Shown: in pieces, positions 45,161 to 60,556 of the stretch
How the letters are laid out: each line of letters starts with the position of its first letter
Numbering within the stretch: the stretch's first letter is position 1
Virus record (IMG/VR): IMGVR_UViG_3300036770_005214
Coordinates: 44,123 to 108,122 of that record
DNA: 64,000 bases
Direction: 5' to 3' (one strand)
Origin: a virus
The notes under the pieces: generated by a model
Databases searched by the model: none
Told to the model about the DNA's origin: nothing
Seen by the model: only the letters and a program-made list of their open reading frames with translations
Position numbers and translations under genes: made by a program

Positions 45161-45212
45161 CCGATCTCCCAAGGTACCGCACCGTTGGTATCAGAATGGG
45201 CCTTGAAACTGC

Positions 45213-45289: not shown

Positions 45290-45955
45290 CTACTCCTCGT
45301 CGTCGTAGTCGCCGTCGTCGTCCAGATAGTCGTTGTCTTGCGGCTCGTCCTCGTCCTCAAACTCGGCATTGTCCTCGGCTTCTTCCATGAGCGCCGTTTC
45401 GACTTGGCGCAACATGGCGCGCACTGCACGACCCATCTGCGCAGGGCGAACGCGGATGGGCTCCAGGTAAGGAACAGCCTGGACACTGCGCTTTCCGTTG
45501 CGCTCGGTCTCCTCAAAACGGAACGGCTGCAAGGCGAGACCTTGCGCATCCAGTTGGAGGTTCAAGCGGATCGCACCGCCGAACCGGCGCCCCAGAATGG
45601 CCGCGAGACGGCGCCCGAAGGCGTCGCCCTGGTCCGCGAACGAGGCAGCGCCCCCGACGTCTTCCTGGGCCGTTTCTGCCCCACCAGAGGCCACCGGGGG
45701 AGCATCGGAGGCGACGGGCTGTTGCTGCGCGGCGAGTTGGGTGAGCAGGCCCCGCGCTTCGGGGTTGGAGAGGAGCATCGGCAAGATCTTCTGGATGGGC
45801 GACCAGTCGCCACCAGCGATCCGCTGAATGTCATCGGGGCCCAATCCGGCTTGCATGGCAAGCTCCAGAAAGTTCACCCCACCACTCGACTGCGCTGCGC
45901 TCTCCATCGGAGTCTCCTGTGCCTTGCTCGGCTTCGCCGGCTGCTTTCGGGTCAT
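45290..45955 (-). CDS. Hypothetical protein with acidic C-terminal tail
   Basis: Ends EDEDEPQDNDYLDDDGDYDDEE. Confidence 0.6.
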   Translation of the reverse strand: MTRKQPAKPSKAQETPMESAAQSSGGVNFLELAMQAGLGPDDIQRIAGGDWSPIQKILPMLLSNPEARGLLTQLAAQQQPVASDAPPVASGGAETAQEDVGGAASFADQGDAFGRRLAAILGRRFGGAIRLNLQLDAQGLALQPFRFEETERNGKRSVQAVPYLEPIRVRPAQMGRAVRAMLRQVETALMEEAEDNAEFEDEDEPQDNDYLDDDGDYDDEE

Positions 45956-45965
45956 GGGTTCCATC

Positions 45966-46286
45966 CTACTCGAAGTTGTTGCGGAGGCATGGCAGCACCC
46001 CAGGCGGGATGACCTGCGCTCCGAAGCCATAGCCGGCCAGTGCATACGTCCGAACGGTCAGGTTGGAACCCTTGACCTCCGTAACGGTGCTCACCGTGAT
46101 GCCCCGACGGTCGAAGTGGTGCAGGATGCGCCGGACGTAGCTCTCCGACACACCCAGACGCTCCGCGATCTTCGACGCGGTGGCGGGCCAGTAGCCCGTG
46201 AGCAAGAGCAAGACGATGCGAGCGCCCGTCTCGGCGCCCGATCGACCTCGCTTGGTCTCTTCGCTCAGGTCACGGTCTTGCGGCAT
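45966..46286 (-). CDS. Winged-helix HTH protein
   Basis: PATASKIAERLGVSESYVRRILHHF. Confidence 0.75.
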   Translation of the reverse strand: MPQDRDLSEETKRGRSGAETGARIVLLLLTGYWPATASKIAERLGVSESYVRRILHHFDRRGITVSTVTEVKGSNLTVRTYALAGYGFGAQVIPPGVLPCLRNNFE

Positions 46287-46335
46287 CCCTTATGGGGTAA
46301 CGCGCCCCTTCCTGATACGCCACAACCCTTATGGG

Positions 46336-46788
46336 CTACCAGCGCCGGCCATTCCGCTGGGGGATGGGATCGTTGATCTCCACCGTTTCGCCGTCCGTAT
46401 CGCGCAGGAGTGCGCCGACCTGCACGCCCCCCGAAGAGGTCGCCCGGCGACTCCGCGAACGCCCCGACTCGGGCGTGAGCAGCACTTGACCCGTGTCCAA
46501 CCGCTCCGCCTTCCACCGCCGGCCTCGTTGCACGGCGATGCGGAGACCTTCCACGATCTCCTTCTCTTGCCAATCGTCCCGCGGAGCCACCGCAGCGATG
46601 GGCGTCTCGTACTCGCCGCCTTCCCAGTAGGCAGGGGACCAGCCGCCCGGACGGTCCGTCGTGTAGACGCTCGCCGAGGCGTTCGCCGCCGAGAAGCCGC
46701 CGGGGTTGACCGAGTTCGCGGTGATGTACCCCGCGTGCTCACCGATCCGTGCGAGCATCTGCCCATTCACCCGTCCGATGCGCCGCAT
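46336..46788 (-). CDS. Putative virion protein (MRRIG tag)
   Basis: Starts MRRIGRVNG..RIGEH; TGATG coupling. Confidence 0.55.
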   Translation of the reverse strand: MRRIGRVNGQMLARIGEHAGYITANSVNPGGFSAANASASVYTTDRPGGWSPAYWEGGEYETPIAAVAPRDDWQEKEIVEGLRIAVQRGRRWKAERLDTGQVLLTPESGRSRSRRATSSGGVQVGALLRDTDGETVEINDPIPQRNGRRW

Positions 46789-47096
46789 CACGACTCCCCA
46801 CGCGCCGGAACCCGCGGCGCTTGCACAGGGTAACCCATGAACGTGGTAGGAGGCTTGCCCTCCGTCCACCGCTCTACCACGAGTGTCAGCTTGCCCTGCG
46901 AAAGTCCCGTGCGGACCTTGGCACGCTTCCCTCCCAACCCTTCCAGCCTTCGCGCCGCGATGCGAGGACGACGCCGCCCCGCCCGGTCCGCGATGCGCTT
47001 CCGCCGTGCGTCCCGAGCTTCGGTGACGTTACGGCTGAAGTCGAAAGCCGTGTTGATGCTCGTGAGCACCAGCACGATGTTGGTGAGGAAGCCCAC
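46788..47096 (-). CDS. Basic hypothetical protein with hydrophobic N-terminus
   Basis: GGAG RBS, operon context. Confidence 0.55.
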   Translation of the reverse strand: MGFLTNIVLVLTSINTAFDFSRNVTEARDARRKRIADRAGRRRPRIAARRLEGLGGKRAKVRTGLSQGKLTLVVERWTEGKPPTTFMGYPVQAPRVPARGES

Positions 47097-47099
47097 GCG

Positions 47100-47378
47100 T
47101 CACTCCCCCGCGTCGCCGCGAGAGGGCCAATCCAACAGGTTGTAGTTTTGGTACAACTTGTCGATGTCCACGCCGACGTCCGCCAGCTTCTCTTCCTTCC
47201 GCCGGAGCTTCGCGACTTCGCGCTCAATCCGAATGTGCTGCTTGAGGACGTCCTGGGTCCGCCGCCGAATCTTGTTGACCTCGCGGACCTCCGCCGGATC
47301 CCAGAAAGCGCCCACCGCGTTGTGTTGCCACATGCCTAACTCCTCTAGTTGTTTGTACTTTTCTTGGAAGTCGTACAC
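47100..47378 (-). CDS. Small coiled-coil protein
   Basis: Overlaps the upstream stop; operon context. Confidence 0.5.
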   Translation of the reverse strand: MYDFQEKYKQLEELGMWQHNAVGAFWDPAEVREVNKIRRRTQDVLKQHIRIEREVAKLRRKEEKLADVGVDIDKLYQNYNLLDWPSRGDAGE

Positions 47379-48313
47379 TACACATCCGCGAAGATGACCA
47401 CCGAACCGCCGTCCGTTGGCTCCACTTGCAAAGCACCGCGAGCCTTCGTGTTGATGCCGTACTTCAGCGCCTTGGCAAGGGCCAGATTGTTAATCATCGT
47501 CGCCTTGTCGGGAGCATGGGTCACCGTGACCGCCGAGCCGTCAAAGCGGTTGTTGTCGACGATGACCGTGCTCTCCCGAGGTTCCGAGACGGGGTAGCCG
47601 TTTTCCGCCAGAATGGTGCTGAACTCGGTCACCGCATCGGCCACCGCCCCGACGTAGCCCGTCCCAGGGGTAGCCGGCGTGGTCACATAGCGGTTGATCA
47701 GGAAGCCCACGAGCGCCCCGATCCCAGTCGCCACCCCGCGGTTCTTGCGGGCCACCGCATAACCAACCCCAGCCCCCACGAGCGAGTACAAGAGCGGGCC
47801 TGCTTCAGTCCCGAACCCCGCCGCCGCCGCGTCCTTCTTCTTGAACTTCTCCCGCACCGAGGTCACCGCCTTGGCGGTCCCTTGCTTCACGCTAGAGGCT
47901 GCTTTCGCAGTCCCTTGCTTCACACTGTAGGCCACCTTGTCAGCTACCTCGCCAGACTTGCGGAAGAACAGGCGACCGCCGACAGCGTGCAGGCGCCCAT
48001 AGGGTCCGGGCACCTTGTCGGCGCGCAAGAGCGCGGCCGTAGTCTCGTTCACCTTGTCGGACAAGTGCTGAAGCTCTTTGTAGAAGGGAGTACGGCTTTG
48101 CTTCCCATTCGGGTCTTTCTTCAGAACGTAGGCGGAGAAGAACGCGTTTAGTTTCGAGACGGCTCTTTCGATCTCCTGGAGATTCCCGGAGCCCATGCCG
48201 TACTCGTACATGGAAGTCTGCAAACCCACCAGCGGAGACGGATCAGCGTCGTAAGCGGTATTGTAGAAGTCCTCGACAGCGCCCACCGAGCTAATCATCC
48301 CGATGCGTTGCAT
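47378..48313 (-). CDS. Putative virion membrane protein, paralog A
   Basis: MQRIG start; two TM helices PLLYSLVGAGVGYAVA / GIGALVGFL; extra domain after YVG. Confidence 0.7.
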   Translation of the reverse strand: MQRIGMISSVGAVEDFYNTAYDADPSPLVGLQTSMYEYGMGSGNLQEIERAVSKLNAFFSAYVLKKDPNGKQSRTPFYKELQHLSDKVNETTAALLRADKVPGPYGRLHAVGGRLFFRKSGEVADKVAYSVKQGTAKAASSVKQGTAKAVTSVREKFKKKDAAAAGFGTEAGPLLYSLVGAGVGYAVARKNRGVATGIGALVGFLINRYVTTPATPGTGYVGAVADAVTEFSTILAENGYPVSEPRESTVIVDNNRFDGSAVTVTHAPDKATMINNLALAKALKYGINTKARGALQVEPTDGGSVVIFADV

Positions 48314-48339
48314 GTGCGTCTCTCCAGGTCAGTAAGGGA

Positions 48340-48915
48340 CTATTGCCGTAGGGCTTGGTTGGCCAGGAAGCCCACGAGCGCCCCAACACCAGCGGCCATT
48401 CCGCGGTTCTTGCGGGCCACCGCGTAGCCGACACCCGCTCCCATGAGCGAGTACAACAGCGGCGCCGAGTCAGACCCGAACCCAGCGGACTCGGCCCCCT
48501 TCCCAGCGCGGGGCTGGACCCCTGGACCCAGAGAGACCCGCGCTCCAGGATCCCGGAAGGACAGACGACCGTTGGTAACGGTAAGACGCCCATGTGGGCC
48601 GGGCACCCCGTCGCGTCGCAGATCGAACGCCACGAGTTGATTCACTGCGGCAGCGTATTCTTCAAGCTCTTTATAGAACAAGTCACGAGGCTTGCCCGAG
48701 GCCTCTTTCTCTGAAACGTAGTCAGAAAAATAATCGTTCACTTTCTTGATCTCAAACTGAACATCCCCGATGCCCCTTTCGCCTCGGTACATCATAAGAA
48801 TGGTCTGCTTCAAGGAATCGTAGGCTCTTCCCCCAGGACCGGGGGAGATAGCGTTCTCCCAAGCGTACAATCCCCTGGCCTCGCTCACTGACCCAATCAT
48901 TCCGATGCGTTGCAT
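48340..48915 (-). CDS. Putative virion membrane protein, paralog B
   Basis: MQRIG start; shares FYKEL, VPGP.GRL, AGFG and the TM pair with paralog A. Confidence 0.7.
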   Translation of the reverse strand: MQRIGMIGSVSEARGLYAWENAISPGPGGRAYDSLKQTILMMYRGERGIGDVQFEIKKVNDYFSDYVSEKEASGKPRDLFYKELEEYAAAVNQLVAFDLRRDGVPGPHGRLTVTNGRLSFRDPGARVSLGPGVQPRAGKGAESAGFGSDSAPLLYSLMGAGVGYAVARKNRGMAAGVGALVGFLANQALRQ

Positions 48916-48930
48916 GTGCAGATCTCCGAG

Positions 48931-49248
48931 TCAGTAGCAGGAGCTACTGCCGTAGGGTTGTGGCCCACAATGTAGCGCATCGTAGACAAGGGATTCCATG
49001 CGACGGCGGCCCGGTCCGCCCATCCCGCCGAGGTCAGCGTGGAGGAGGTAACCGTCCTCGTCGAAGGTGAAACGCTCCGGGAAGCGATCTTCCAAGAGCG
49101 AGGCCAGTTGGATGCGGCGAGCACCCAAGCGGAGGATACGCGCACGGTACGGCCCGAGGTTGCGCCCCACCGCTCGCGCACGCTGGTACTTCGACGATGC
49201 GACGTCGAGGCTGCGCAGCACCAGCATGTAGCGGTTGAACAGGGCCAT
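48931..49248 (-). CDS. Hypothetical protein
   Basis: ORF within the morphogenesis block. Confidence 0.5.
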   Translation of the reverse strand: MALFNRYMLVLRSLDVASSKYQRARAVGRNLGPYRARILRLGARRIQLASLLEDRFPERFTFDEDGYLLHADLGGMGGPGRRRMESLVYDALHCGPQPYGSSSCY

Positions 49249-49277
49249 CTGCTCTCGTTCCGTTTGCACGCGAACCC

Positions 49278-50174
49278 CTAGATAGAGCGGCCGGCGGCAC
49301 GCCGACGTCGTGACTGGTCCATGTACCAACGGGGCACCGGCATCCCGAGCACCGCTGACGGGTCGTCGTAGACCACGCTTCCATCCGGCTGACGGATCTT
49401 CGTCACCGCATGGAACAGCCGCACGCCCGAGCCGCCGCCCATCCCGGAAGCGGGGCCCTCAATCAAGCGGCAGTACACGCTGGCGTCGTGGCCAGCGTTG
49501 ATCAGTTCGCCCGCACGGTAGGCGGCGAGGCCTTCGCAGTCGTCATGCCCGCGGCGAGCGATCTCTTCGGCATCCCACCACAACTCGGGCGACCCCTCGG
49601 TCTGATACCGGATGCTCCCCGAGTACAACCGGGGGAGACCCTTCGCCTCGATCTGCTTCGCGTTGTGACGTGCGATGGCGTTGTTGATGTCGACCACCGG
49701 AGACGCCGTGGAGTCGTCGATGGTCAGCATCATGTACTCGTTGGTCCGGCCCCGGTCGCCCGGCACCCGAACCCGCTCGCCCCCCGCGAACCCCATCACG
49801 GCGCCCGAGCCCGAGACGTACACGGGGCGACCGCTCTCGAAGCCGATGCGGGCCGCCGAGTCCTCGCCATAGATGCGTTCTTCGGCAGTCCGCCACGCCG
49901 CCAGCGTGCCCGCGGTCACACAGCCATCCTTGGAGGCCGTCACCGCGTCCCGCCACACGCCGTCGGTGCAGTTCACACGGCTCGGCGCACGGGGCACACG
50001 CCCCGCCCGGATCGAGCGCATGTTCCGCTGGACAAGGCCTTCCATGACGTCCGCGAGCGCCTGCTGACCACCATGCACGTTCAGCACGACCCGCATCCCG
50101 TCCTGCCGTGGGGGCAGTGGATGGGGGTCACGCTTCAGGATGGAGCCAGTCAGGCCGATCGCGATCTCGTTCAC
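49278..50174 (-). CDS. Transglutaminase-fold cysteine enzyme (putative maturation protease) with inactive N-terminal repeat
   Basis: Triad GHDDCEGLAA (Cys), FHAV (His), YDDPS (Asp). Confidence 0.75.
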   Translation of the reverse strand: MNEIAIGLTGSILKRDPHPLPPRQDGMRVVLNVHGGQQALADVMEGLVQRNMRSIRAGRVPRAPSRVNCTDGVWRDAVTASKDGCVTAGTLAAWRTAEERIYGEDSAARIGFESGRPVYVSGSGAVMGFAGGERVRVPGDRGRTNEYMMLTIDDSTASPVVDINNAIARHNAKQIEAKGLPRLYSGSIRYQTEGSPELWWDAEEIARRGHDDCEGLAAYRAGELINAGHDASVYCRLIEGPASGMGGGSGVRLFHAVTKIRQPDGSVVYDDPSAVLGMPVPRWYMDQSRRRRAAGRSI

Positions 50175-50198
50175 GGAAACCCCCGCCCGGATGGGCTG

Positions 50199-50525
50199 TC
50201 AGTAGTGACGGCGGTGGTGGAGACGACCGACGTACATGCCCTCAGCGGCGGCGGGAGCAGCCTCCTCCGCGTTTGCTTTCGCTTCCGCGATGAGCCGGTC
50301 AGATTCCAAACGCTCCTCGGACTTCCGACGGCCCAGGACCGGGACCCCTGCTGCGGGCTTGCCCATGATCATGGGGAGGACGGTCTTGCCGGCCACAGCA
50401 CCGATGACGCCGTACAGGGCGGCGCGGGGCAGGGTGCCCTTGCCCGAGCCCTTCATCGCGTAGCTGGCACCGACACCGATGGCGGCGCCGATCAAGAGGT
50501 TCCGGTCTTTGAGCATATCCAACAT
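50199..50525 (-). CDS. Glycine-zipper membrane protein with C-terminal EGMYVG tag
   Basis: Two hydrophobic helices; AGGAG RBS. Confidence 0.65.
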   Translation of the reverse strand: MLDMLKDRNLLIGAAIGVGASYAMKGSGKGTLPRAALYGVIGAVAGKTVLPMIMGKPAAGVPVLGRRKSEERLESDRLIAEAKANAEEAAPAAAEGMYVGRLHHRRHY

Positions 50526-50562
50526 GGTCTTCTCCTAAGGGGCGGAAGGGGGTGAGAGGGGA

Positions 50563-51330
50563 CTAGAAGTAGATCTGACCGATGTAGTGGAAGCCTTCGG
50601 CTTCGGCCTCATCGCCTTCCGCAACCAACTCGTCGATTGCTGCTTGCCGACGGTCGGCGGCCATCTGAGCGAGGATGTCATCGTCGTCTTCATCGCCTTC
50701 CGCGATCAGGTCAGCGGTTCGCCGCTCTGCGAGTTGGCGCTGAGCTTCCGCTGCATCCTCTGCTGCTTTACGGGCGGCTCGCTGGGCGTTTTGGGTCTCC
50801 CGACTACCCCGTTCCTCCGCTTCACGGGCGGCCTCCAACTCTGCCGCAGCTTTGCGCTGCAACTCCTCCGCAGCCCTGAGGGCGTCTGCTGCTTTCCTCG
50901 CCTCACGAGCGGCCCGGTCGGCATCTCGTTGGGCCTCCGCAGCTTCCAGGTTCAACGCTTGGCGCGCTTGCAGTTCTTCAGCCTTGGTCAAAGCACGATT
51001 CGCACCTGCCCTGCGGATGGCCGTCACGGGGGACATCGCGGCCTTTTTGGCAGCGACCGCAGCCTTGTTCACCGCGATCGTGCGACGACGAGCGGCCTCT
51101 AGCTTGGCCTGCTTGGCGTTCTGCTCGGCGAGCGCCAACTGCTCCTGGGGCGACAGAGGGCGCTGGGGCAGGAGCATCCGGCCGGCAGCCGCCCCGATGG
51201 CGCCGAACACCGCAGCGCGGACGAGGGATCCCTTTGCAGGTCCGCCGACTGCGTAGCTGGCGACAACACCCAACGCGAGACCCGTCAGGGTGCTTGGGTT
51301 GGTCAGTCCGAGGGATTCGAGGGTGGCCAT
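50563..51330 (-). CDS. Membrane-anchored coiled-coil protein with C-terminal EGFHYIG tag
   Basis: N-terminal TM pair paralogous to the 50199 gene; long Ala/Glu/Arg coiled coil. Confidence 0.65.
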   Translation of the reverse strand: MATLESLGLTNPSTLTGLALGVVASYAVGGPAKGSLVRAAVFGAIGAAAGRMLLPQRPLSPQEQLALAEQNAKQAKLEAARRRTIAVNKAAVAAKKAAMSPVTAIRRAGANRALTKAEELQARQALNLEAAEAQRDADRAAREARKAADALRAAEELQRKAAAELEAAREAEERGSRETQNAQRAARKAAEDAAEAQRQLAERRTADLIAEGDEDDDDILAQMAADRRQAAIDELVAEGDEAEAEGFHYIGQIYF

Positions 51331-51344
51331 GATGGTTCCTGCGG

Positions 51345-51794
51345 CTAGTAGGAGGTCTGGTTCAACACGCGAGCGGCCTGCGCACGGTGCTGGGGACGGA
51401 TGTAGGACGCGAACTTGGTGGCCGTGGCGGCGACGACCGCGGCGTCATCGGCGGGGCCGGGGACGTCCACGGGGTTGACGATGTAGAGCAGGGCGCCCGC
51501 GATCGACAGCTTCGCAGCCATGGGGGTCTCGGGGTCAAGCATGACGTAGTACAGCGCGACCACTTCGTTCGAGAAGGGGACGTGACCCGCGATGGCGAGA
51601 AGCCGGGGAAGGACCCGCTGCGCCTTGCCGAGATCTTTCGTCGAGGCCGCTGGGACGGACAGACGGTCGAGCGAGGACGAGCCCCACGACGCCACCGACA
51701 GCCGCTCGGGCAGCCCGTAGAAGCCCCCAGACGCCCGCTTGCCGCGGGAGCCTACCGAGAGCCGTTCCGGGAGCCCGTAGAAGGTCGCCATCAC
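51345..51794 (-). CDS. YkvA/DUF1232-like membrane protein with N-terminal repeats
   Basis: DPETPMAAKL..GALLYIVNPVD..G.ADD. Confidence 0.7.
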   Translation of the reverse strand: MMATFYGLPERLSVGSRGKRASGGFYGLPERLSVASWGSSSLDRLSVPAASTKDLGKAQRVLPRLLAIAGHVPFSNEVVALYYVMLDPETPMAAKLSIAGALLYIVNPVDVPGPADDAAVVAATATKFASYIRPQHRAQAARVLNQTSY

Positions 51795-52252
51795 TGCACC
51801 AGCGACGCGACGAGGTAGCCCACACCAGCACCGATGGCAGCCGACTGGATCCGGCGCCCGGAGCCGCCCAGCAGGAGGCCCACCGTGGCCCCGAGCATGA
51901 CGGACGTCCCGGTGCCAATGTCCGCGATCAGCCCCTCCGACTTGGCGGCGTTGACCACCTCGGTCGGGACCACGCGGGCTGCTTCCGCCTTCTTGGCCTT
52001 GCCCTTCGCGGCCTTGGTGATCTTGGTCGGGTCCTGCTCCTCGGGAGCCGCCGGAGCCGCCGCCTTCTTCTTGCCGAAGAGCTTGCCGAGCCCCTTGCGC
52101 TCCTCGGGAGGCTTGGCCGCATCCTTCGCGGCACGAGCAGCCGCGGCCTTCGCCCCGATGCCGATCAACGGCACCAGGAAGAACACCCCGCTCTCGGGCT
52201 CTTCGATGTAGCCGACGCGCTCATACGCGACGACTTCGCCACGCCGGCCCAT
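51791..52252 (-). CDS. Putative virion membrane protein
   Basis: ERVG near the N-terminus, hydrophobic helix, C-terminal glycine zippers. Confidence 0.6.
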   Translation of the reverse strand: MGRRGEVVAYERVGYIEEPESGVFFLVPLIGIGAKAAAARAAKDAAKPPEERKGLGKLFGKKKAAAPAAPEEQDPTKITKAAKGKAKKAEAARVVPTEVVNAAKSEGLIADIGTGTSVMLGATVGLLLGGSGRRIQSAAIGAGVGYLVASLVQ

Positions 52253-52255
52253 GTT

Positions 52256-52852
52256 TCAGCGACCCCGACGGCGCGGAGCGTAGTTGGAGCCAAACTGGTC
52301 ATCGGCGTCGTAGCCGGGGTGGAACTGGTTGCCGTAGTAGGGGTCGTACTCGTCCGACTCGCCGCGGAAGGGGTCCGCGAGGCCCCAGTCGAGGTCGCCG
52401 ACGTTGCCGATGTGGACCAGCCCCTCCGCCTCGGCCTCGTCCCCGTCGAGGTCGTCATCCATGCGGCGCAGCGAGCGCGAGGCCCGCGCCGCTTCCCGGC
52501 CCATCTGGCGATAGGAGCGACGGATCTGCCGGCCGCTCGGGGCGTCCTCGGCAAGCTCACCAGCGCACTCCGCGAGGCCCGCGAGCGCCGCCTCGACGCC
52601 ATACGAACTCGGGCAGGCCCGGAGCACGTCATACATGCCCTCGATGGCCTCCACCACTTCCGCCTTGGTCGGGGCGGGCATCGGGCTGCCCTCGCCGTCT
52701 TCGTCATCGCCGAACTCGTCCATCACGGTCGACGAGAGGCGCTTCGAGGCGCCCTGCTTCGCCTGCCCGTAGGCCGGCTTGACGACCGAAGAGAACTCGG
52801 CGCCGATCCGCTTGAACAGGCCCAGCTTCCCAACTTGTCCGATGCGACGCAT
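52256..52852 (-). CDS. Putative virion protein (MRRIG and EGLVHIG tags)
   Basis: AAGGAG RBS; MRRIGQVG..; EAEAEGLVHIGNVGD. Confidence 0.6.
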   Translation of the reverse strand: MRRIGQVGKLGLFKRIGAEFSSVVKPAYGQAKQGASKRLSSTVMDEFGDDEDGEGSPMPAPTKAEVVEAIEGMYDVLRACPSSYGVEAALAGLAECAGELAEDAPSGRQIRRSYRQMGREAARASRSLRRMDDDLDGDEAEAEGLVHIGNVGDLDWGLADPFRGESDEYDPYYGNQFHPGYDADDQFGSNYAPRRRGR

Positions 52853-52862
52853 GATGGACTCC

Positions 52863-53618
52863 TTATCCGAGACAGTAGTATGCGACTTCGTAGGTGGTAG
52901 GCAGGATGCCCCCGGAAGCCGCAAGGGTGTAGCGAAGACCGGGGACAACAGCGATCCGGTCACTGCGGGGAGACGTCAACACTTCGTCGTAAACCAGCAC
53001 ACCCGCCGCATTGTACCCGCGGAGTTGTGCGCCAGGGCTGGTCGACAGGGTGACGACCTCAAACGAGGAACAGAAGGGCGGCAGGTCGAGCAGGACCTCG
53101 GCCGCCGCCGTGCTCACCGTCTGGAAGTCGCTCCAGTAGGAGAAGCCCGCCGTCGCCTCGTCGAGCCCGTAGTGAGCCGTGATCGGGAAGGCGTTGGGGT
53201 TCTCGACCTCGAAGTCGATCGAGCGCCCGAAGACGTACAGAATCGACGCGTTGCCCACCACGCCGTTGCTCAATGCCGCCTGCACGAACACCCGGCGGGT
53301 GATGACCTCGTTGCCGGACGAGGCCCGGACAAAGAAACGCAAGCCGGCCGATCCGTTCGCCGGCAGCACCGTCCCCGGGGGGATGGCGGCGGCAAGCTGA
53401 ATCTTCCAGCGGAAGATGTGGTTTGGCAGACTGCCGATGCGGAGCGCCTGCCGCGGGTTCCCCACGAATCCCGCCAGCGCGGCGACCTCTACTTGGTCGC
53501 CAATCTTGTACCCAATCAGGTCCCGGTCGAACACCTGATCGCGCGTCGTCACCGCGTAGGGTGGCGTCTGCTCAAACGGGTTCTGGTGCCAGTTGGCAAG
53601 GTTGCGGGGGAAAGCCAT
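52863..53618 (-). CDS. Beta-rich putative minor capsid/penton protein
   Basis: All-beta pattern, directly downstream of the capsid candidate. Confidence 0.5.
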   Translation of the reverse strand: MAFPRNLANWHQNPFEQTPPYAVTTRDQVFDRDLIGYKIGDQVEVAALAGFVGNPRQALRIGSLPNHIFRWKIQLAAAIPPGTVLPANGSAGLRFFVRASSGNEVITRRVFVQAALSNGVVGNASILYVFGRSIDFEVENPNAFPITAHYGLDEATAGFSYWSDFQTVSTAAAEVLLDLPPFCSSFEVVTLSTSPGAQLRGYNAAGVLVYDEVLTSPRSDRIAVVPGLRYTLAASGGILPTTYEVAYYCLG

Positions 53619-53669
53619 GTGGGTAGAGCCTCAAGGGCCGATAGATCAGAACAGACAGAGGGAGGTAAG

Positions 53670-53711
53670 AAAAAAAGCGGCCGAGCACCCCGTTCGGGAC
53701 ACTCGGCCGCT
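53670..53711 (-). terminator. Rho-independent terminator after the capsid candidate
   Basis: Minus strand AGCGGCCGAG..CTCGGCCGCT followed by a T-run (A7 on plus). Confidence 0.85.
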
Positions 53712-53761
53712 AGTCAGCCCGGCGGATGGGGAAGTCCCCCGGTCAACGGGCCGAGGGTCGA

Positions 53762-54445
53762 TCAGCCGCCGACGCCGGACAGCGCGAGCGCCGCGTCGAT
53801 GAGCACCTTCTCAAGCGCCTGCTGCGCCATGTAGGGCGAAAGCTCGTCACCGATCAGACCGCCAGAGACCGTGTGGCCCGAGCCAGCGTCGATGTTCTGG
53901 AGGTTGATACGGAACTGCTGACCGACGTTGATCGGACGGCGGCCGATGACCTGCATGAAGCGCGTAGAATCACGGCTCCAGAGGGACAGCGGGATGCCCT
54001 GCGACCCGACGTTGACCGGCAACCCGGCGACCGTGATACCGGTCACGAGGATGCTGGCCGGATCGTCCGAGTCGAGGATGACCGACTTGGCCCAGAAGGT
54101 ACGGTTCAGGGTGTCGTTCAGGTTGCCGGTGCCGCCCGCCGCGATGGTGGTGGACCCGAGGCCGTCAAACTGGTTCTCTTGGACCAGATTGGCAGCGCCC
54201 GCGAGCCGGTAGGACTCGACGAGGTTCGCGCGAGCCGGGGGCATCTCGAAGTCGACGTCCGACTCGTCAGCTTCGGCCAGCATCGCCTCGTACTTCGCAG
54301 CGCGACCGCGAGCGCGGGCGGCACGGCGAGCGAGACGGCCAGCGCGGCGGGGGCCGTACGCGGCGCCCGAGTCAACGTCGCCCACGCCGGAATCGGCGAA
54401 GACTTCGCCAGTGGCGGTGTCGATGTAAGCGTTCATCAGGGACAT
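53762..54445 (-). CDS. Putative single-jelly-roll major capsid protein
   Basis: Basic N-arm (RRAGRLARRAARARGR) plus about 110-aa eight-strand-like domain (FWAKSVIL, ILVTGITVAG, GIPLSLW, VGQQFRINLQN, VSGGLIG); own structured leader and strong terminator. Confidence 0.6.
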   Translation of the reverse strand: MSLMNAYIDTATGEVFADSGVGDVDSGAAYGPRRAGRLARRAARARGRAAKYEAMLAEADESDVDFEMPPARANLVESYRLAGAANLVQENQFDGLGSTTIAAGGTGNLNDTLNRTFWAKSVILDSDDPASILVTGITVAGLPVNVGSQGIPLSLWSRDSTRFMQVIGRRPINVGQQFRINLQNIDAGSGHTVSGGLIGDELSPYMAQQALEKVLIDAALALSGVGG

Positions 54446-54501
54446 GGTGTCCTCACAGGTGTTTGGAAGTTGAAGGAATCACGCAGTCACGCACGCAGAA
54501 G

Positions 54502-54590
54502 ATGGGCCGGGTAGCTAGGAGACCAGTTGTTTTGGAAGGATGGAACCGGGATGGCCCGATTGCACTGGACGACGGGCTACCCAAGCCCAT
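54502..54590 (-). other. Structured RNA element upstream of the capsid candidate
   Basis: Nested stems ATGGGC/GCCCAT, GGGTAGC/GCTACCC, CCAGT/ACTGG, AATCGGG/CCCGGTT. Confidence 0.5.
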
Positions 54591-54598
54591 GAGACCCG

Positions 54599-55405
54599 TC
54601 AGCGTCCGCGACCGCCGCGGAAACGGGGGAGGACGCGAACGGGAGCCAAGGGACGGCGGCGGGGCACGAGCACCGGAGCGGCCGGACCGCGGCGCACGAC
54701 AACGGACGGGGCGTCGTCATCGTCAACGGCGTCGCGCAGAAGCTCCTGCGCCTCCTCTTCCAGGTTCTTCTTCTTCAGCCGGCCTTCGAGACGAGCGACG
54801 CGCTTGTCCTTGCCCTTGGCCTTCGCCTTCAAGATCTTGGCCTGGATGCGGGCCGCGCGCTTCTCGTCCTTGTCCACGTCGTCACCGCCGACGTCGACAG
54901 TGCCGATGTGGATCAGGCCTTCGCTGTCCATGCCGTCCACGTCCATCCCGTCCACATCGCCCACGTCGATGTAGCCGGCCTCGTAGCCAGCCGCGGAGGC
55001 CGCGGGGATCAGCTTCGAGCTACGGGCGAAGGACAGACCAGCCGGGACGATCATGCCGATCGCCGCGTTCTGGAGCAGGTGCCGGTAGTTGGTCAGCGCC
55101 TTGGTCTGGCCAGCGATCAGGGTCGCCGCCGCGCCGACGATGCCGAGCGGAAGGGTCAGACCGGTAGCCTGCTCGTACTTGCCCTGGAACTTGCTCTCCA
55201 GGGTCGCGGCGGTCGCCGCACCAGCCACCACAGCCAGCGCGTTCTTGGCGGTGCTCATGGTGAAGGCGCCGGCGAGGCGCGACATGCCCTTGCGGCTCTT
55301 GCGGCTCTTACGGCTCTTGCGACCGCTCTTGCGGCTGCCCTTGCCCCGCTTGTTGCTCTTCCGGCTCTTACCGCCGCCAAACGAACTCGGCATGGGGAGA
55401 CTCAT
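54599..55405 (-). CDS. Putative major virion membrane protein
   Basis: Basic (SRK)n N-terminus, about three hydrophobic helices, VGDVD and EGLIHIG tags, basic C-terminus. Confidence 0.65.
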   Translation of the reverse strand: MSLPMPSSFGGGKSRKSNKRGKGSRKSGRKSRKSRKSRKGMSRLAGAFTMSTAKNALAVVAGAATAATLESKFQGKYEQATGLTLPLGIVGAAATLIAGQTKALTNYRHLLQNAAIGMIVPAGLSFARSSKLIPAASAAGYEAGYIDVGDVDGMDVDGMDSEGLIHIGTVDVGGDDVDKDEKRAARIQAKILKAKAKGKDKRVARLEGRLKKKNLEEEAQELLRDAVDDDDAPSVVVRRGPAAPVLVPRRRPLAPVRVLPRFRGGRGR

Positions 55406-55508
55406 CGAAACCTCCGACGTGGTACGGCTACCACGAGAATCAGGTGAAAGCAGAACTGTAGTCGCTCAAAAGGGGTATGCTCTCGCATCGCCCCGGTTCC
55501 CTGACGGT

Positions 55509-57371
55509 CTACTTCCGCCAGAACTCGTCAGGACCTTGGGTCCACGCGGGGGGGATACGCTTCACACGAGGCGTCGCGTCCCACTTGCGCGGAGACTTCT
55601 CCAACCAAGCAGAATCCCCGTCCGACCAGAACCCGCCGATGCTCGCGTTCGTGCCGTAGCTACGGTAGCCGCCCGGCGCGAACATGGAGGGAGGAGGGGC
55701 ACCAAAGGAAGGCATCGGCCCCGCGTAGGACATCGGGGGCTGCGGCGGCATCGGATACTGCGGCATCTGGGGCTGCGGCATCGGATAGCCGTAGGGCTGC
55801 GGCTGCGGATACGGCTGGGGCTGCTGCTGTTGGCGACGACGCCCGCCACCGCCGCCACGTCCCTGGCCGCCGAAGGCCCGACCGGGCAGCGGGACCGCGG
55901 AGAGGCCCCGGCGCTGCAACTTCTCGGCAAGCTCCCGCTCCTCTTTCTCATCCTTGAGGCGCTGGACAAGCGCCTGCATCCCGGGACGGTCTTGGACTTC
56001 AAGGCCCGCCTGCCGACGCGACTGCCGCTGCGCCTTCAGCGCCTTCAAGCGGGACGCGAGGCCCCCGCGACCACCACGCCCGGAGACCATCGCACCCGTG
56101 TAGAACCCGGTCGCCTTGGCTTCCGCTTCGGCCTTCCAGGGGGTGTAGTCCTCGCCGTCGGAAAGCTCCTTGAACTTCGCGCGGAGCTTCTGGAGCTTGG
56201 CCCAGGTCTTCTCAAGCTGTTTCTTCACCTTCTCGGGGTTGTCCTTCGAGAACGTGCCCTTCAACTTCTCGAAGATGTTGCCGACGTTCGGGGCGACGAT
56301 GCCGAAGCACCCATCCCCCATCGGAACCACCTCGCCTCCCTCGATCTCCCCGGTGAGCACGCCCACGAGGACCGACATCGCCGCGATGCCCGCTGCGTTG
56401 TAGCCCACGCCCGCCGTCGTCGGCTCCGCGGTGAAGGTGTAGACGATCTGGCTGTCCGACACGACAGCCGCCGTGTAGTAGATGCCTTCACCGCCCGCGA
56501 GGTTCTTCGCAAGCTCGGAGAGTTCGGAGCGGACAGTGGCGGTCAGCGGACCATTGATGGTGACGGTCGCGGCTTCAACGTCCACACTGTCTGCCATTCC
56601 CTTGCCAGCGACGCGCTTCCCAAACTTTGCGGCGATCTTGAGCGCCTTCTCTTGGCGCTTGGCCAGCTTCTTCTGGTACTCGGACTGGAACGTCTGGACT
56701 TCACCGACGCCACCAGCGCCCCACTGCATCGGGCCCGCGTCGCCGTAGCGGGGAGCGAGCGCGAACTTGCCCCAGAAGGAGGGCTCGCGGCTGTAGCAAC
56801 CGGTCCACAGGTCGTAGCCGGTCTCGGGCGAGCAGCAGTACAGGCCGGGCCACGCTTCGGAAGCGGCCTCGCACATGTTGTACTGCGGCAGATCAAGGTA
56901 GCTGTTGAAGTTGAAGTCGGTGTCGCCGACGAGCGCACCGACCGGGCGCACATCGTAGGCGCTCGCGGCTTCTTCGCGGTTCCAGGGGTCGTCCATCGAG
57001 ATGGAGGGCGAGTAGGAGAGGGTGTCATCCCCCGCGCCGTACTTCCAGTAGTCGCGACGCTCGCGCAACGCGCCGACGCTCGCCAAGCCTTCCGCCCGGG
57101 GGTTCCACTGATACAGCGGCATCCGGTCGGTGAAGTACGACTGGTGGTCCATCGCGTGATCGGCCTTGTGCCACGCAGAGTCCCAGTAGTCGTAGTCGTC
57201 GTCCGCAGTCCACGGCGAGAAGTTGTTGAGGTGGCCCACAATGGCGCCGAGGATGCCTGAAGCAGTCGTCGGGCACTGGATGACCATCGCGTGCTCGTCG
57301 CCGACGGGTCCGCTGCAACGCTCGTTCTCGCGCTCACCGACCAGCCGACCGATCGCGATGCTCTCGAACAT
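55509..57371 (-). CDS. Putative virion polyprotein punctuated by VG motifs
   Basis: GGAGG RBS; ten VG dipeptides separating compositionally distinct segments. Confidence 0.6.
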   Translation of the reverse strand: MFESIAIGRLVGERENERCSGPVGDEHAMVIQCPTTASGILGAIVGHLNNFSPWTADDDYDYWDSAWHKADHAMDHQSYFTDRMPLYQWNPRAEGLASVGALRERRDYWKYGAGDDTLSYSPSISMDDPWNREEAASAYDVRPVGALVGDTDFNFNSYLDLPQYNMCEAASEAWPGLYCCSPETGYDLWTGCYSREPSFWGKFALAPRYGDAGPMQWGAGGVGEVQTFQSEYQKKLAKRQEKALKIAAKFGKRVAGKGMADSVDVEAATVTINGPLTATVRSELSELAKNLAGGEGIYYTAAVVSDSQIVYTFTAEPTTAGVGYNAAGIAAMSVLVGVLTGEIEGGEVVPMGDGCFGIVAPNVGNIFEKLKGTFSKDNPEKVKKQLEKTWAKLQKLRAKFKELSDGEDYTPWKAEAEAKATGFYTGAMVSGRGGRGGLASRLKALKAQRQSRRQAGLEVQDRPGMQALVQRLKDEKEERELAEKLQRRGLSAVPLPGRAFGGQGRGGGGGRRRQQQQPQPYPQPQPYGYPMPQPQMPQYPMPPQPPMSYAGPMPSFGAPPPSMFAPGGYRSYGTNASIGGFWSDGDSAWLEKSPRKWDATPRVKRIPPAWTQGPDEFWRK

Positions 57372-57452
57372 GAAGACCTCCGACGCGGATGGTAACAGAT
57401 GCGTCGGAGGGGTCACACGCTCAAAGGGGGTCTACTCCCTCACTTTCTCGCG

Positions 57453-57474
57453 GAAGGGGTATGTATACCCCTTC
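57453..57474. promoter_or_regulatory. Palindromic operator-like site GAAGGGGTAT-GT-ATACCCCTTC
   Basis: Perfect 10-bp inverted repeat; half-sites recur in other intergenic regions. Confidence 0.65.
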
Positions 57475-57482
57475 GATTGTCG

Positions 57483-59327
57483 TCATTCGTCCTCGTCCTC
57501 GTCCTCGTCTTCGTCCTCGTCATCCCCTTCATCTTCGTCGTCGAAGTCGTCATCTTCGTCTTCGTCTTCGTCTTCGTCGTCTTCTTCGTCCTCGTCCTCG
57601 TCTTCGTCGTCATCATCGAAGCTGACGGCGGGCAGCTTACCCCCTCGGGGCTTCGGCTTCGCCTTGGGCTTGGGCTTCGGCTTGGCCCCCCGACGGGGCT
57701 TCACCTCCTCCTCTTCCTCTTCCTCTCCGTCTTCCGAGAGGAGCAACGGGTCCTCGACGTCCTCATCCTCGTCTTCGCCATGCCCGAGGGCGCCGGACAA
57801 CTCGCTGCGGAAGCTCTCCGCAAAGCCGGGGCTCGCGTGCGCCAGCTTCTCGACGGCCTTGCGCCGCGTCTCGCTCGGGAGCATCTGAAGCACGAGGGCG
57901 GCCTGCTCGGGCGTCACGTTCGCGAGGTCGAGACCACCGAGGCCCCCCGACTTCTTCTCGACTTCGCGCCGGCGACCCCGCTGGCGCGCGACCCGCGACT
58001 CCCGCTCGGTGCGGCGCCGCTCCCGGCGAACGCGCGTGATCTCCCCGATGACGGGCGTGCTGGAGATCTCGTCAATGTCCTCGTCCACCTCGTCGCGGGC
58101 GGGCGCCTGCGGGGCAGCGACGGGAGCCTCGTTCGCCTGCTGGCCTTGCTGGCCCTGTTGGACCATCCCGAGCAGCGTGCTGAGCATCCCGCCCTCGTCG
58201 CCCGACTTCGCCTGTTTCTTGAGTCGCTTGATCTCCCGTACCACCTTCTCATAGGCCCGGCGCATGGTCCCCAAGTGCGTCTCCGCGACCTCGGCGCGTT
58301 GCTTGTACCGGACCAGCTTCTCTTGCGCGATCGACGCCCGGCGCTCGGCGTCCGAGAGGGAGTCGCGAATGTCGTCGACCTCCTCCTCCAGGGCTTTGTA
58401 CTCGTCTACCATCTCGCGCTTCTCGCGCTTCCATTCCTCGCGGATGCGGTCCCACTCCTCCCGCTGACGCTGGCGCTCGGTCTCGATGACCTCCACCTTC
58501 GCCTTGGCGCGCTCCCCCTCGCGGGTCATCACGAGCAGTTGGTCATTGTGCGCCTTCAAGATGGCGACCATGTTCTCGCGAAGGGTCCGCTGGTCCTCGA
58601 CGGACAGCTTGCGGTCCTCTTTCAAGACTTCGATGATCTGCTCGGCTTGCTTCCCCTCGCGGCTCGACGACCGGGCGCTGATCTCCGTCAGCGTGGTCAC
58701 CAACCAGTTGATCGTGGAGAAGGTGACGCTCGACTCGTAAGCCTGGGGACGCGCTTCGTGCATGGGTGCCACACGGGGTTCGAGGACGGGAGACGGGGCC
58801 GGGGGAGGATAGGCCGGGCGGGGCGCCTGCGGAGGCGTCACAAGCTGCTGCGGCGTGTAGGCGGGTGCTGGGGCGGGTGCGGGCGCGGGAGCGGGCGCTG
58901 GGGCCATCGTGGGCGCAGGGGAAGGCATCGCCGGCAGCCGGGGAGGCGGCGAGACCATGCCGTGCTCCGGGGAGACCGCGTGGCGCTCGCTGACGCAGTT
59001 GAGATCGAAGCCCTCGGCGTCGACCCAGGTGTCCATCCTCTCGTCCTGAATCTGCACCAGGAGCCGGAACTGCACCACCGCCTCGTCCGGGTATCGCTCC
59101 AAGATCTCGTCGACCTTGCGGAAGACCTCCGTCTGCACCTCGGACTCGCTCTTGAGACCAATCTGCACATACTCGGGCGCGAACTTCGGTCCTTGCCCCG
59201 TCGCACGCGCCGAGATGGCCACGCGTCCGGGAAGCTCGTCTAGGGGTACGTCGTCTTCTTCGAGGCGTAGCTGGGCCGTCAGCCACTCCCCCGCGCTCGT
59301 CGCGTTGTAGAACCACCCTCGGGCCAT
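57483..59327 (-). CDS. Pro-rich, long coiled-coil protein with poly-D/E tail (scaffold-like)
   Basis: AAGGAGG RBS; PAPAP segment, long coiled coil, about 35-residue acidic tail. Confidence 0.75.
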   Translation of the reverse strand: MARGWFYNATSAGEWLTAQLRLEEDDVPLDELPGRVAISARATGQGPKFAPEYVQIGLKSESEVQTEVFRKVDEILERYPDEAVVQFRLLVQIQDERMDTWVDAEGFDLNCVSERHAVSPEHGMVSPPPRLPAMPSPAPTMAPAPAPAPAPAPAPAYTPQQLVTPPQAPRPAYPPPAPSPVLEPRVAPMHEARPQAYESSVTFSTINWLVTTLTEISARSSSREGKQAEQIIEVLKEDRKLSVEDQRTLRENMVAILKAHNDQLLVMTREGERAKAKVEVIETERQRQREEWDRIREEWKREKREMVDEYKALEEEVDDIRDSLSDAERRASIAQEKLVRYKQRAEVAETHLGTMRRAYEKVVREIKRLKKQAKSGDEGGMLSTLLGMVQQGQQGQQANEAPVAAPQAPARDEVDEDIDEISSTPVIGEITRVRRERRRTERESRVARQRGRRREVEKKSGGLGGLDLANVTPEQAALVLQMLPSETRRKAVEKLAHASPGFAESFRSELSGALGHGEDEDEDVEDPLLLSEDGEEEEEEEVKPRRGAKPKPKPKAKPKPRGGKLPAVSFDDDDEDEDEDEEDDEDEDEDEDDDFDDEDEGDDEDEDEDEDEDE

Positions 59328-59416
59328 CGATCCCTCCTTCCGCCTTCCTGGGTAACCCGGTGGCTACCAGAGGCACAGGAAGATATACAAGGGGGGACAA
59401 GGGGCGAGGGGGGAGG

Positions 59417-59848
59417 ATGAGTCAGTCGAAGCAGCCCGTGGACACCTACGCCATCGGGGTCCACTTGGCAGACCAGTTGCGGAAGCAAATCCAGTGGATC
59501 GAACCGCTCGACTGGAACAGCTACAAGCCCAAGCAGATGGTCATCGTGGGGTACGACCAGGGCCCCATCCACGTCCGCCTGGGCTACGTCCACCTCGCCG
59601 GCTGGATGCGTATCTCCAAGGGCGAAGACGAGATGGCCAGCATCGCGGTGCAGGTGAAGGACAGCGTTCACCTCTTCGTCATCGAAGCGCCCGGCTTGAA
59701 CCCATCCGAGCAGCACGACTTGGAGAAGATCTTGACCGTCGCCCGTCGCGCCCTCGGAGCCGACGACCACCGCCGCAGCTACATCCCCGGCAAGGTCGCC
59801 ACGACGCGCTGGTCCTGGGCCTACCAGCACGCGACCATGGACTACTAG
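59417..59848 (+). CDS. Hypothetical protein
   Basis: GGAGG RBS, divergent from the structural block. Confidence 0.6.
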   Translation: MSQSKQPVDTYAIGVHLADQLRKQIQWIEPLDWNSYKPKQMVIVGYDQGPIHVRLGYVHLAGWMRISKGEDEMASIAVQVKDSVHLFVIEAPGLNPSEQHDLEKILTVARRALGADDHRRSYIPGKVATTRWSWAYQHATMDY

Positions 59849-60126
59849 AGCGATTCCGGGTCTTTCGTCAAGACGACCAGGGACTTCCCACAGCGGCACT
59901 TCTGCAACGCCGTCGCGACCTTCCCCAACGTCTCAAAGTCCATCGGAAGCCCGAGCACCGCTCGGGTATGCTCCAGGTTCGTCCAGCGCCCCCAGGCGCC
60001 ATCCTCGCCCCAACAAGGGCACGCGATGATGATGGGGAGGTTGCTCTTGGTCACCTTCTCTCCTTCGCCCGCTCGGTGGGCAATCATTCTGTTTCCTGGT
60101 CCCATGCTGATCTGAAAGCTGCTCAC
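59845..60126 (-). CDS. Small Cys-containing protein
   Basis: CPC and CRC; GTGA coupling. Confidence 0.5.
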   Translation of the reverse strand: MSSFQISMGPGNRMIAHRAGEGEKVTKSNLPIIIACPCWGEDGAWGRWTNLEHTRAVLGLPMDFETLGKVATALQKCRCGKSLVVLTKDPESL

Positions 60127-60362
60127 AGTCTCTCCTCAAAGCCCTGACACTCACACTCGGGACCGGTAGCCTCTTCGTGAGCGTTCACAGCGCACGGGCC
60201 CTCGTCGTGCGCATCCATGTGGTGCCCGCACACGCACCGCGGCAGCGCCTCCCAGCACGGCCCGCAGAGGTCGCTTCCTGGCCTCGCGTTCCGCAGACAG
60301 GTGTCATGCCTGCCAACGCAACGCCGTGCGGCCATCTCTCGGATCACTTTGTACTGCCACAT
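60123..60362 (-). CDS. Small Cys/His-rich zinc-binding protein
   Basis: GGAGGAG RBS; CGPC, CVCGH..H..C..CEC. Confidence 0.55.
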   Translation of the reverse strand: MWQYKVIREMAARRCVGRHDTCLRNARPGSDLCGPCWEALPRCVCGHHMDAHDEGPCAVNAHEEATGPECECQGFEERL

Positions 60363-60556
60363 GGCTCCTCCCTCGACAGGTCCCGCAGCGGCGCCAGCCG
60401 CCCGCCCTGCGCCCAAACTCGCCCCGCGCCCAGACACGACCAGCAGGTGACCCGGCGGGCCGTGGTCGTCGCGTCCTCGGGCCGCCAACCCCATCCGTTG
60501 CAGGTCGGGCAGGTGCGGACCGTCACGCCGTCGGGGATGACGTAGATCGCGCTCAC
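60344..60556 (-). CDS. DnaJ-type CxxCxGxG zinc-finger mini-protein
   Basis: CPTCNGWG and CWSCLGAG. Confidence 0.6.
   Translation of the reverse strand: MSAIYVIPDGVTVRTCPTCNGWGWRPEDATTTARRVTCWSCLGAGRVWAQGGRLAPLRDLSREEPCGSTK

Follow-up and report, generated by a model that had tools for sequence, protein, structure and literature searches.

A conserved jelly-roll gene module as a candidate particle-building block in a proposed clade of large viruses of high-GC bacteria

We analysed a 64,000-nucleotide stretch of viral DNA (the window; bases 44123–108122 of the single 108,122-bp contig IMGVR_UViG_3300036770_005214, L001, whose whole genome is called G0 here) in which an original prediction, made from the letters of the sequence, had placed at 45290–59327 the morphogenesis module of a very large tailless, membrane-containing virus. 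The most likely role of this block, on our analysis, is to build the particles of a hitherto undescribed clade of large double-stranded DNA (dsDNA) viruses that infect bacteria of high guanine-cytosine (GC) content and are not tailed phages. By sequence comparison, three of its genes are among the few non-replication genes common to three genomes of the clade; they encode a predicted jelly-roll protein (JR1), a second protein modelled as two beta-sandwich domains (JR2) and an enzyme with a conserved Cys-His-Asp triad. Profile searches recognised no gene for a terminase, a portal, an HK97 capsid or a tail in the same three genomes. The JR1-JR2-enzyme module is the best candidate for building the particle because no other conserved block could encode one, and we judge the chances about evenly balanced that the clade comprises large non-tailed viruses with a shell built from JR1 and JR2.

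The G0 contig (66% GC) is held in IMG/VR as a virus record and listed as linear, with a CheckV completeness of 92%. Its start and far end have ~125 identical bases in common, and a minus-strand gene runs across the junction, the open reading frame at window 63510–63983 (63510–64000) being joined to contig bases 1–586 with 40 identical residues in the overlap. Because a gene spans the junction and the ends overlap, G0 is a complete closed circle of ~108 kb, that is, circular or circularly permuted DNA. Two complete relatives in IMG/VR, G1 (178,164 bp) and G2 (117,752 bp), both carry terminal overlaps of ~127 bp, and the genomes of the clade, which range in size from 108 to at least 187 kb, assemble as circles. 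No tRNA genes were found in G0. Pfam and PHROGs searches with its large proteins identified a primase-helicase, further helicases including a Dda-like one, and PolA, UvrD and a Rad50/SbcC-like protein, the last three being the machinery that the virus had been proposed to possess in its own right. Further matches were to an integrase, to an SLT transglycosylase and an endolysin-like protein, to a giant protein that joins methyltransferase and SNF2 parts, and to a MoxR-type AAA+ protein accompanied by vWA proteins. The genes common to G0, G1 and G2 by BLASTP comprise a replication and repair set, the integrase, a giant methylase-helicase and a few small proteins, in addition to JR1, JR2 and the Cys-His-Asp enzyme.

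Gene content indicates that the element is a virus and not a plasmid, because it carries phage-type replication and lysis genes as well as fibre-like proteins and has no conjugation or FtsK-type ATPase. This also bears on the possibility that the module does not make a virion at all and instead serves a virus or plasmid-like element in some other way, by specifying a structure of the cell envelope or its surface, a compartment for replication on membranes, or fibres of jelly-roll subunits similar to pili, with the true capsid genes being unrecognised or absent. We regard this as unlikely, given the missing conjugation and FtsK-type ATPases, the phage-like character of the replication, lysis and fibre genes, the lack of any other conserved block in the three genomes that could encode a capsid, and the observation that no module protein starts with a hydrophobic signal-like segment.

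Gene calling based on GC content at third codon positions placed all real genes of 45290–59327 on the minus strand, in agreement with the co-directional 14 kb block first described. The gene order in G0, G1 and G2 is a coiled-coil acidic protein, a Gln/Pro/Tyr-rich protein of 600–800 residues, a basic membrane protein, JR1, JR2, a set of variable genes and the Cys-His-Asp enzyme, followed further on by a Lys-rich protein and the giant methylase-helicase. This core order recurs wholly or partly in ten metagenome fragments of 66–70% GC, so that the synteny proposed as a check on the module extends beyond the complete genomes, and JR2 comes after JR1 in every fragment of sufficient length.

JR1 (227 residues; 53762–54445, minus strand) was modelled with AlphaFold2 from an alignment of 23 sequences, JR1 itself and 22 metagenomic homologues of the same length. 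The model consists of an Arg-rich N-terminal arm and helix, an eight-stranded jelly roll (residues 88–202) and a C-terminal helix, matching the basic N-arm and single beta-sandwich-like domain read earlier from the sequence. Its mean predicted local distance difference test (pLDDT) score is 72, rising to ~88 over residues 88–202, where blocks mostly score 84–94. The matches returned by Foldseek and VIA-align are all jelly rolls, including furin/kexin P-domains, GOLD domains, carbohydrate-binding modules and many virus coat proteins, and for this reason we call the predicted fold a jelly roll, the outcome on which the original prediction had staked its reading. The structural scores of the viral matches (PBCV-1, 8.4; nanovirus, 8.3; HHIV-2, 7.8; faustovirus, 7.8; STMV, 7.6) do not, by the search tool's calibration, single out capsid proteins; one alignment among the structural matches resembles PRD1 P3. 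The modelled layout is that of a coat protein, and JR1 is the main shell-protein candidate.

JR1 is 46% identical to its G1 orthologue and 41% identical to that of G2 (BLASTP). A JR1 profile retrieved only 72 clusters among 1.84 billion representatives, and fifty distant relatives were without an informative Pfam family. Profiles of JR1, JR2 and the Cys-His-Asp enzyme gave nothing meaningful against all PDB sequences, and tblastn of the three against 50,697 phage records gave nothing credible. Chains of Sulfolobus polyhedral virus 1 (SPV1), whose shell protein is VP4, were found neither in the JR1 structure-search lists nor by PDB sequence, where a missing row does not exclude a relation in fold. 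Three distant relatives of JR1 (P0063, P0086 and P0091; 579, 371 and 314 residues) carry the JR1 domain two or three times in tandem in one chain, an arrangement that recalls the route from single to double jelly rolls in coat-protein evolution.

Directly after the JR1 stop codon lies an intrinsic terminator or attenuator (53676–53711, minus strand; read from 53711 to 53676), formed by a 16-bp stem with 11 GC pairs and then U7, and the strong terminator of the original prediction is thereby confirmed. Long GC hairpins of differing sequence occupy the same position after JR1 in G1, G2, L028 and L029 (z scores of -2.5 to -4.6; L004:10640-10770, L005:10630-10770, L028:6320-6450 and L029:1365-1500). 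These signals suggest that JR1 expression is high and separately terminated. The leader of 153 nucleotides before JR1, which had been called structured, is no more so than shuffled versions of itself (z -1.39; 19 of 200 shuffles as good), and this part of the earlier description falls.

JR2 (251 residues; 52863–53618, minus strand), described before as a second all-beta protein, is modelled with a disordered N-terminus and two beta-sandwich domains (residues 37–159 and 160–251), from an alignment of seven sequences and with a pLDDT of 70. The domains resemble PirA, GOLD domains, Ena pilins, a rhinovirus VP and the tandem jelly rolls of SID1. JR2 is 41% identical to its G1 orthologue and 26% identical to that of G2 (BLASTP). 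It always lies next to JR1 and is a candidate for a second shell protein. Foldseek also listed the STIV and phiCjT23 coats, and JR2 was considered as a minimal double-jelly-roll coat protein, an assignment not upheld by Z-ranked alignments.

The Cys-His-Asp enzyme (298 residues; 49278–50174, minus strand), the signature gene of the clade, bears out the cysteine enzyme expected in the block. Six orthologues with 43–53% identity (48% for G1 and 43% for G2 by BLASTP) all retain C213, H255 and D270/271, which are spaced by 42 and 15 residues, and the order Cys, His, Asp is that required for the transglutaminase-like cysteine protease superfamily. Searches recovered 75 clusters with E values below 1e-67, on contigs of up to 187 kb and none with a Pfam domain; the enzyme itself has no Pfam match even at an E value of 1, no PHROG match and no PDB match by sequence or profile. 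Its language-model neighbours are transglutaminase/BTLCP clusters (PF06035, PF01841) at a score of 0.87, which lies below the tool's trust level and serves only as a lead. The enzyme is a candidate for a protease of particle maturation or for a transglutaminase that forms cross-links.

A short peptide, x-[RHY]-[IV]-G-x-[IVL], recurs in otherwise unrelated proteins of the module (window 46336–57416) and also in module genes of L004 and L005. N-terminal copies read MQRIGMI (twice), MRRIGQV, MRRIGRV, EIAIGLT and SIAIGRL, and others follow an acidic 'EG' near C-termini (EGLVHIGNV, EGLIHIGTV, EGFHYIGQIYF and EGMYVGRLHH). Similar peptides are found in the module proteins of G1 and G2 and at the N-termini of most JR1 homologues. 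In all three genomes its density within the module is ~2.3 times that found outside it, a figure inflated by Gly-zipper segments. By analogy with adenovirus maturation, it could be a cleavage site of the Cys-His-Asp enzyme. The adenovirus cysteine protease adenain cuts core and cement precursors at (M/I/L)XGX-G, and a conserved cysteine enzyme in a jelly-roll module, a recurring hydrophobic-x-Gly peptide and basic DNA-condensing proteins together make a functional likeness. The likeness is one of analogy only: adenain is an Ulp1-like protease, whereas a transglutaminase-like enzyme is suggested here, there is no homology between them, and cleavage in this clade is putative. Alternatively, the peptide could be a docking tag, in the manner of the cargo peptides of encapsulins, which are such tags. 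Gln/Pro/Tyr-rich low-complexity tails are conserved in large module proteins (C-terminus of the window 55509–57416 product; G1 101651–105968; G2 75369–77768). They sit beside very Lys-rich proteins and the transglutaminase-like enzyme, and tails and Lys-rich proteins may possibly be substrates for isopeptide cross-linking.

Eleven Pfam families (Terminase_6N, TerL_ATPase, Terminase_3, Terminase_6C, TerL_nuclease, Phage_capsid, Phage_portal, Phage_Capsid_P3_N, FtsK_SpoIIIE, Pox_A32 and DUF87/HerA) were searched for in six frames of the three complete genomes, with positive controls that fired. There was no credible match; the only two matches scored 10–12 bits, far below the cut-off, and the 12-bit terminase noise match falls within a helicase gene. 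All five terminase families were negative, as were the HK97 Phage_capsid and Phage_portal profiles and the PRD1-type capsid (PF09018), and the packaging ATPases FtsK_SpoIIIE, Pox_A32 and DUF87 (HerA) gave nothing above noise. The capsid and portal searches used sequence profiles for a subset of the known families, which extreme divergence could escape. PHROGs searches with 49 individual G0 proteins found no terminase, portal, capsid, tail-tube, sheath or tape-measure family, one weak match aside, in which a tape-measure family (E 2e-4) overlaps the SbcC-like coiled coil of the Rad50-like protein. Two pooled searches, one with 48 small proteins of G0 and the other with 117 proteins of G1 and G2 that had no explanation, contained no terminase, portal, major head or tail-tube family among the matches listed (25 families each). 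For the small G0 proteins, the listed matches were to HNH endonuclease, DNA-repair and DNA-binding families only, including an HU-like DNA-binding match (phrog_379). The best 25 of 57 families for G1 and G2 included thymidylate synthase, methyltransferases, exonucleases and HNH proteins, with one weak match each to families named tail fibre, baseplate hub and head decoration; the 'baseplate hub' match is probably a lysozyme domain. The earlier statement that no terminase, portal, HK97 capsid or tail gene is recognisable in the window, together with its extension to the rest of the contig, which could have overturned the reading, holds for the whole of G0 and for both complete relatives.

These results count against a tailed phage in which the genes for head, portal, terminase and tail would have changed too far to be recognised and in which JR1 and JR2 would serve as decoration, cement or receptor-binding proteins. 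Jelly-roll decoration proteins do exist in tailed phages, and such a virus would account for the five fibre-like paralogues, which have an N-terminal anchor in common and of which one carries a virion domain of T4-like cyanophages, and for the weakly matched tail fibre, baseplate hub and head decoration families of G1 and G2. The large terminase subunit, however, can normally be recognised even when a phage is very divergent. Here the profiles of five terminase families, one portal family and HK97 are all negative in three complete genomes, and no unexplained conserved protein of 300–700 residues is left over to be a terminase, portal or capsid. We consider a diverged tailed phage very unlikely.

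Several ATPases were examined in this connection. The only P-loop proteins common to all three genomes are a Sak4-like AAA_24 protein, the Rad50-like protein and UvrD. A Walker-A protein of 349 residues was rejected as a packaging ATPase, its orthologues matching AAA_24 of the Sak4-type recombination ATPases, and the MoxR-type AAA+ and vWA proteins, which are not conserved in G1 or G2, were set aside. A 909-residue protein conserved in G0, G1 and G2 (window 11958–14687) was considered for the role of portal or packaging enzyme and rejected, being a GHKL/MORC-like ATPase with a language-model score of 0.96 to viral HATPase_c_3 clusters and a weak HATPase_c match in the G1 orthologue.

Five consecutive large Thr/Gly/Ala-rich fibre-like proteins are encoded outside the window (L001:3560-12560). 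Four of the five have the N-terminal anchor ALRSPxxxHxxWG...GDTA in common, and the 453-residue member carries a cyanophage/HMO-2011 virion structural domain (phrog_1645, E 1e-87) with 39% identity to S-RIM8, S-RIM50 and HMO-2011. They are probably a set of alternative receptor-binding spikes.

Taken together, the genes suggest how a particle might be built. JR1, with its single jelly roll and Arg-rich arm, would form the bulk of the outer shell together with the two-domain JR2, and we propose that it would be made in excess because the hairpin after its gene stops most transcripts. Membrane proteins with a Gly-zipper hairpin, along with a basic membrane protein of 268 residues (p268), would populate a lipid layer beneath the shell and tie the shell to the DNA, and the coiled-coil acidic protein p614 and the large protein p635 would act as scaffolds. 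The Cys-His-Asp enzyme would mature the particle, either by cutting x-[RHY]-[IV]-G-x-[IVL] peptides or by cross-linking Gln-rich tails to Lys-rich proteins, and host recognition would fall to spikes formed by the five fibre-like proteins, whose genes lie elsewhere on the contig. Since the genes include no packaging motor of any known type, the genome would probably not be pumped into a ready-made shell but would first be condensed by a Lys-rich protein of 658 residues and HU and then enclosed. The words 'membrane-containing', 'tailless' and 'capsid', where we apply them to the clade, are inferences from these gene sequences.

The missing motor also fits a tailless virus that is not icosahedral, in which DNA coated with the Lys-rich protein lies within a membrane, in an enveloped, pleomorphic or rod-like nucleoprotein particle, and in which JR1 and JR2 would serve as matrix or as spikes. 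Known motor-less viruses are mostly non-icosahedral, no packaging ATPase of any kind was matched in the three genomes, and a Lys-rich protein with an isoelectric point (pI) of 11 and many membrane proteins lie in or beside the module. The layout of JR1 (arm, jelly roll and C-terminal helix) and its PRD1 P3-like alignment nonetheless suit a shell better, and Portogloboviridae are motor-less yet have a jelly-roll shell. A non-icosahedral particle appears improbable to us.

A number of points count against a shell of JR1 and JR2. The particle is a prediction, and no motor-less virus with both an icosahedral shell and a genome of more than 100 kb is known to us. PDB profile searches detected no homology between JR1 or JR2 and any solved capsid protein, hhalign found none between JR1 and JR2, and JR2 has no good-scoring match to double-jelly-roll capsid proteins, its N-terminal domain being also like Ena pilins and the toxin subunit PirA. 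Both models are of moderate confidence (pLDDT 70–72), that of JR2 from only seven sequences, and 185,579 species genomes yielded no relative of JR1.

The original prediction had cast the virus as a much larger bacterial lineage of the same kind as Halopanivirales and Portogloboviridae. The block is indeed a conserved, syntenic module, but the placement is not established, because there is no sequence or profile link to solved capsids, an FtsK/HerA ATPase is absent and JR2 has two domains. In Portogloboviridae, an outer shell of jelly rolls surrounds a nucleoprotein core wrapped in membrane, the dsDNA is circular and there is no packaging ATPase. This family, represented by SPV1, follows the same motor-less logic as we propose here; it differs in its archaeal hosts and ~20 kb genome and has no sequence similarity to this clade, for which a nucleoprotein is suggested only by the Lys-rich 658-residue protein and the HU-like phrog_379. 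Tectiviridae and other double-jelly-roll phages (PRD1, PR772, PM2) have a double-jelly-roll coat and an A32/FtsK ATPase, neither of which was recognised here, and the genome here is ~7–10 times larger.

Halopanivirales/Singelaviria (Thermus viruses P23-77 and IN93, archaeal SH1 and HHIV-2, and Simuloviridae) have genomes of 16–31 kb (PMC12642351, PMC12643093), compared with 108–187 kb here. Two small single beta-barrel capsid proteins are found in P23-77, IN93 and SSIP-1 (PMC6356626) and in Simuloviridae (PMC12642351), whereas JR2 comprises two sandwich domains and neither JR1 nor JR2 has a sequence or profile link to the capsid proteins of this group. Its members typically have an FtsK/HerA-type packaging ATPase, which was not found in our three genomes, and this clade, unlike them, has the Cys-His-Asp enzyme and its own replication machinery. 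For the internal lipid membrane of Halopanivirales the indications here are indirect only, coming from five Gly-zipper hairpin proteins and other membrane proteins. A further likeness in general character is to SSIP-1, which infects bacteria, has no tail, contains a membrane and two types of coat protein, and has a genome that resembles almost nothing in the databases (PMC6356626).

In the literature surveyed, cultured tailless membrane-containing bacterial viruses have genomes of a few tens of kb. If the clade is as we propose, the size range of non-tailed bacterial viruses would be extended several-fold, and it would have to be asked how a motor-less virus can enclose this amount of DNA; to our knowledge, all large bacterial viruses are tailed. 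We regard it as a tentative possibility that the clade is a new high-rank lineage, with a jelly-roll shell over a protein-rich membrane, a motor-less, chromatin-like genome of 100–190 kb and a transglutaminase-fold enzyme reading an [IV]-Gly code carried by a dozen structural proteins. We know of no virus for which such a combination has been described. JR1 and the Cys-His-Asp enzyme with its 75 clusters provide marker genes for finding such viruses, which marker-based detection may miss, and the module offers a testable case of a peptide tag common to many structural proteins beside a dedicated cysteine enzyme.

The remaining proteins of the module, all encoded on the minus strand and described from their sequences, begin with its first gene. 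The product, p614 (57483–59327), has an N-terminal domain, a Pro/Ala linker, a long Glu/Arg coiled coil and a poly-Asp/Glu tail, and is without a Pfam or PHROG family; positional counterparts with a similar C-terminal helix region lie at G1 104163–105968 and G2 73215–74525, and the protein appears scaffold-like. It is followed by p635 (55509–57416), with a Cys/Trp-rich N-terminal domain, a Lys-rich coiled coil, one hydrophobic segment and a Gln/Pro/Tyr-rich tail; proteins of weak homology to it occupy the corresponding place in G1, G2, L023, L027 and L028. The basic membrane protein p268 (54599–55405; pI 10.5) has a very basic Ser/Arg/Lys N-terminus, transmembrane segment(s) (residues 80–99), an acidic stretch with EGLIHIGTV and a Lys-rich C-terminus. 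Members of its family immediately precede JR1 in G1, in G2 and at six metagenome loci, and p268 is a candidate DNA-to-membrane linker.

Beyond JR2, p199 (52256–52855) is acidic, starts with MRRIGQVG, has EGLVHIGNVG near its C-terminus and is present as a 97% identical copy in L022. Of the many Gly-zipper membrane proteins noticed at the outset, five (p108, p153, p191, p255 and p311) have a layout of Gly-zipper helix, basic loop and Gly-zipper helix, with a weak Gly-zipper match in Pfam. The hairpin is C-terminal in p153 (51791–52252), a membrane protein, and N-terminal in p255 (50563–51330; Gly-zipper_Omp, E 0.005), where it precedes an Ala/Glu/Arg coiled coil and the end EGFHYIGQIYF; p108 (50199–50525) has the C-terminal end EGMYVGRLHHRRHY. 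The paralogues p311 (47378–48313) and p191 (48340–48915), which together span 47378–48915, both start with MQRIGMI and have no family matches; common to both are a helical N-terminal domain and a near-identical Gly-zipper hairpin, LLYSLxGAGVGYAVARKNRG. Between p153 and p255, p149 (51345–51794) combines a repeated FYGLPERLSV peptide with a DUF1232-like membrane domain (phrog_14750, E 7e-13; weak DUF1232 match), and a homologous domain is found within a 464-residue G1 protein. The distal genes (45290–46869) encode p177, which contains MRRIGRV, a small helix-turn-helix-like protein (45966–46286) and the acidic p251. No structural-protein family was among the PHROG families listed for them in the pool of 48 small proteins, and their membership of the module is uncertain.

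Just downstream of the block, the 658-residue Lys-rich protein (43196–45172, minus strand; pI 11) is a candidate DNA-condensing protein, with a Lys-rich counterpart at the same position in G2 and a 476-residue Lys/Arg-rich protein beside the giant enzyme in G1. That enzyme, a methyltransferase and SNF2 helicase of 2044 residues (35117–41251, minus strand; Pfam Eco57I, SNF2-rel_dom, ResIII and Helicase_C), has orthologues that also flank the module in G1 and G2. DarB of phage P1 is a virion-packaged anti-restriction protein, and by analogy the methylase-helicase may be a virion-carried protein of this type.

Elsewhere in the window, the membrane-anchored transglycosylase of the original prediction is supported by SLT (E 1e-11) and Phage_lysozyme2 (E 6e-10) matches in a tail-anchored lytic transglycosylase (23545–24858, minus strand) with a C-terminal hydrophobic segment at residues 414–432. 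PDB sequence searches with the proteins of 890, 1286, 349 and 501 residues returned nothing useful, and the genes of ~160 codons at 61485–63983, considered as mutual paralogues, were rejected as such by comparison. The small proteins at 20305–21640 are conserved in both relatives. A second conserved set comprises a protein with a C-terminal GP88 domain (PF17338) and two proteins of ~120 residues (window 1755–4427 and 20305–21061; G1 57946–60660; G2 14059–17652). Its genes are adjacent in G1 and G2 and apart in G0, and the set is possibly a vertex or entry module.

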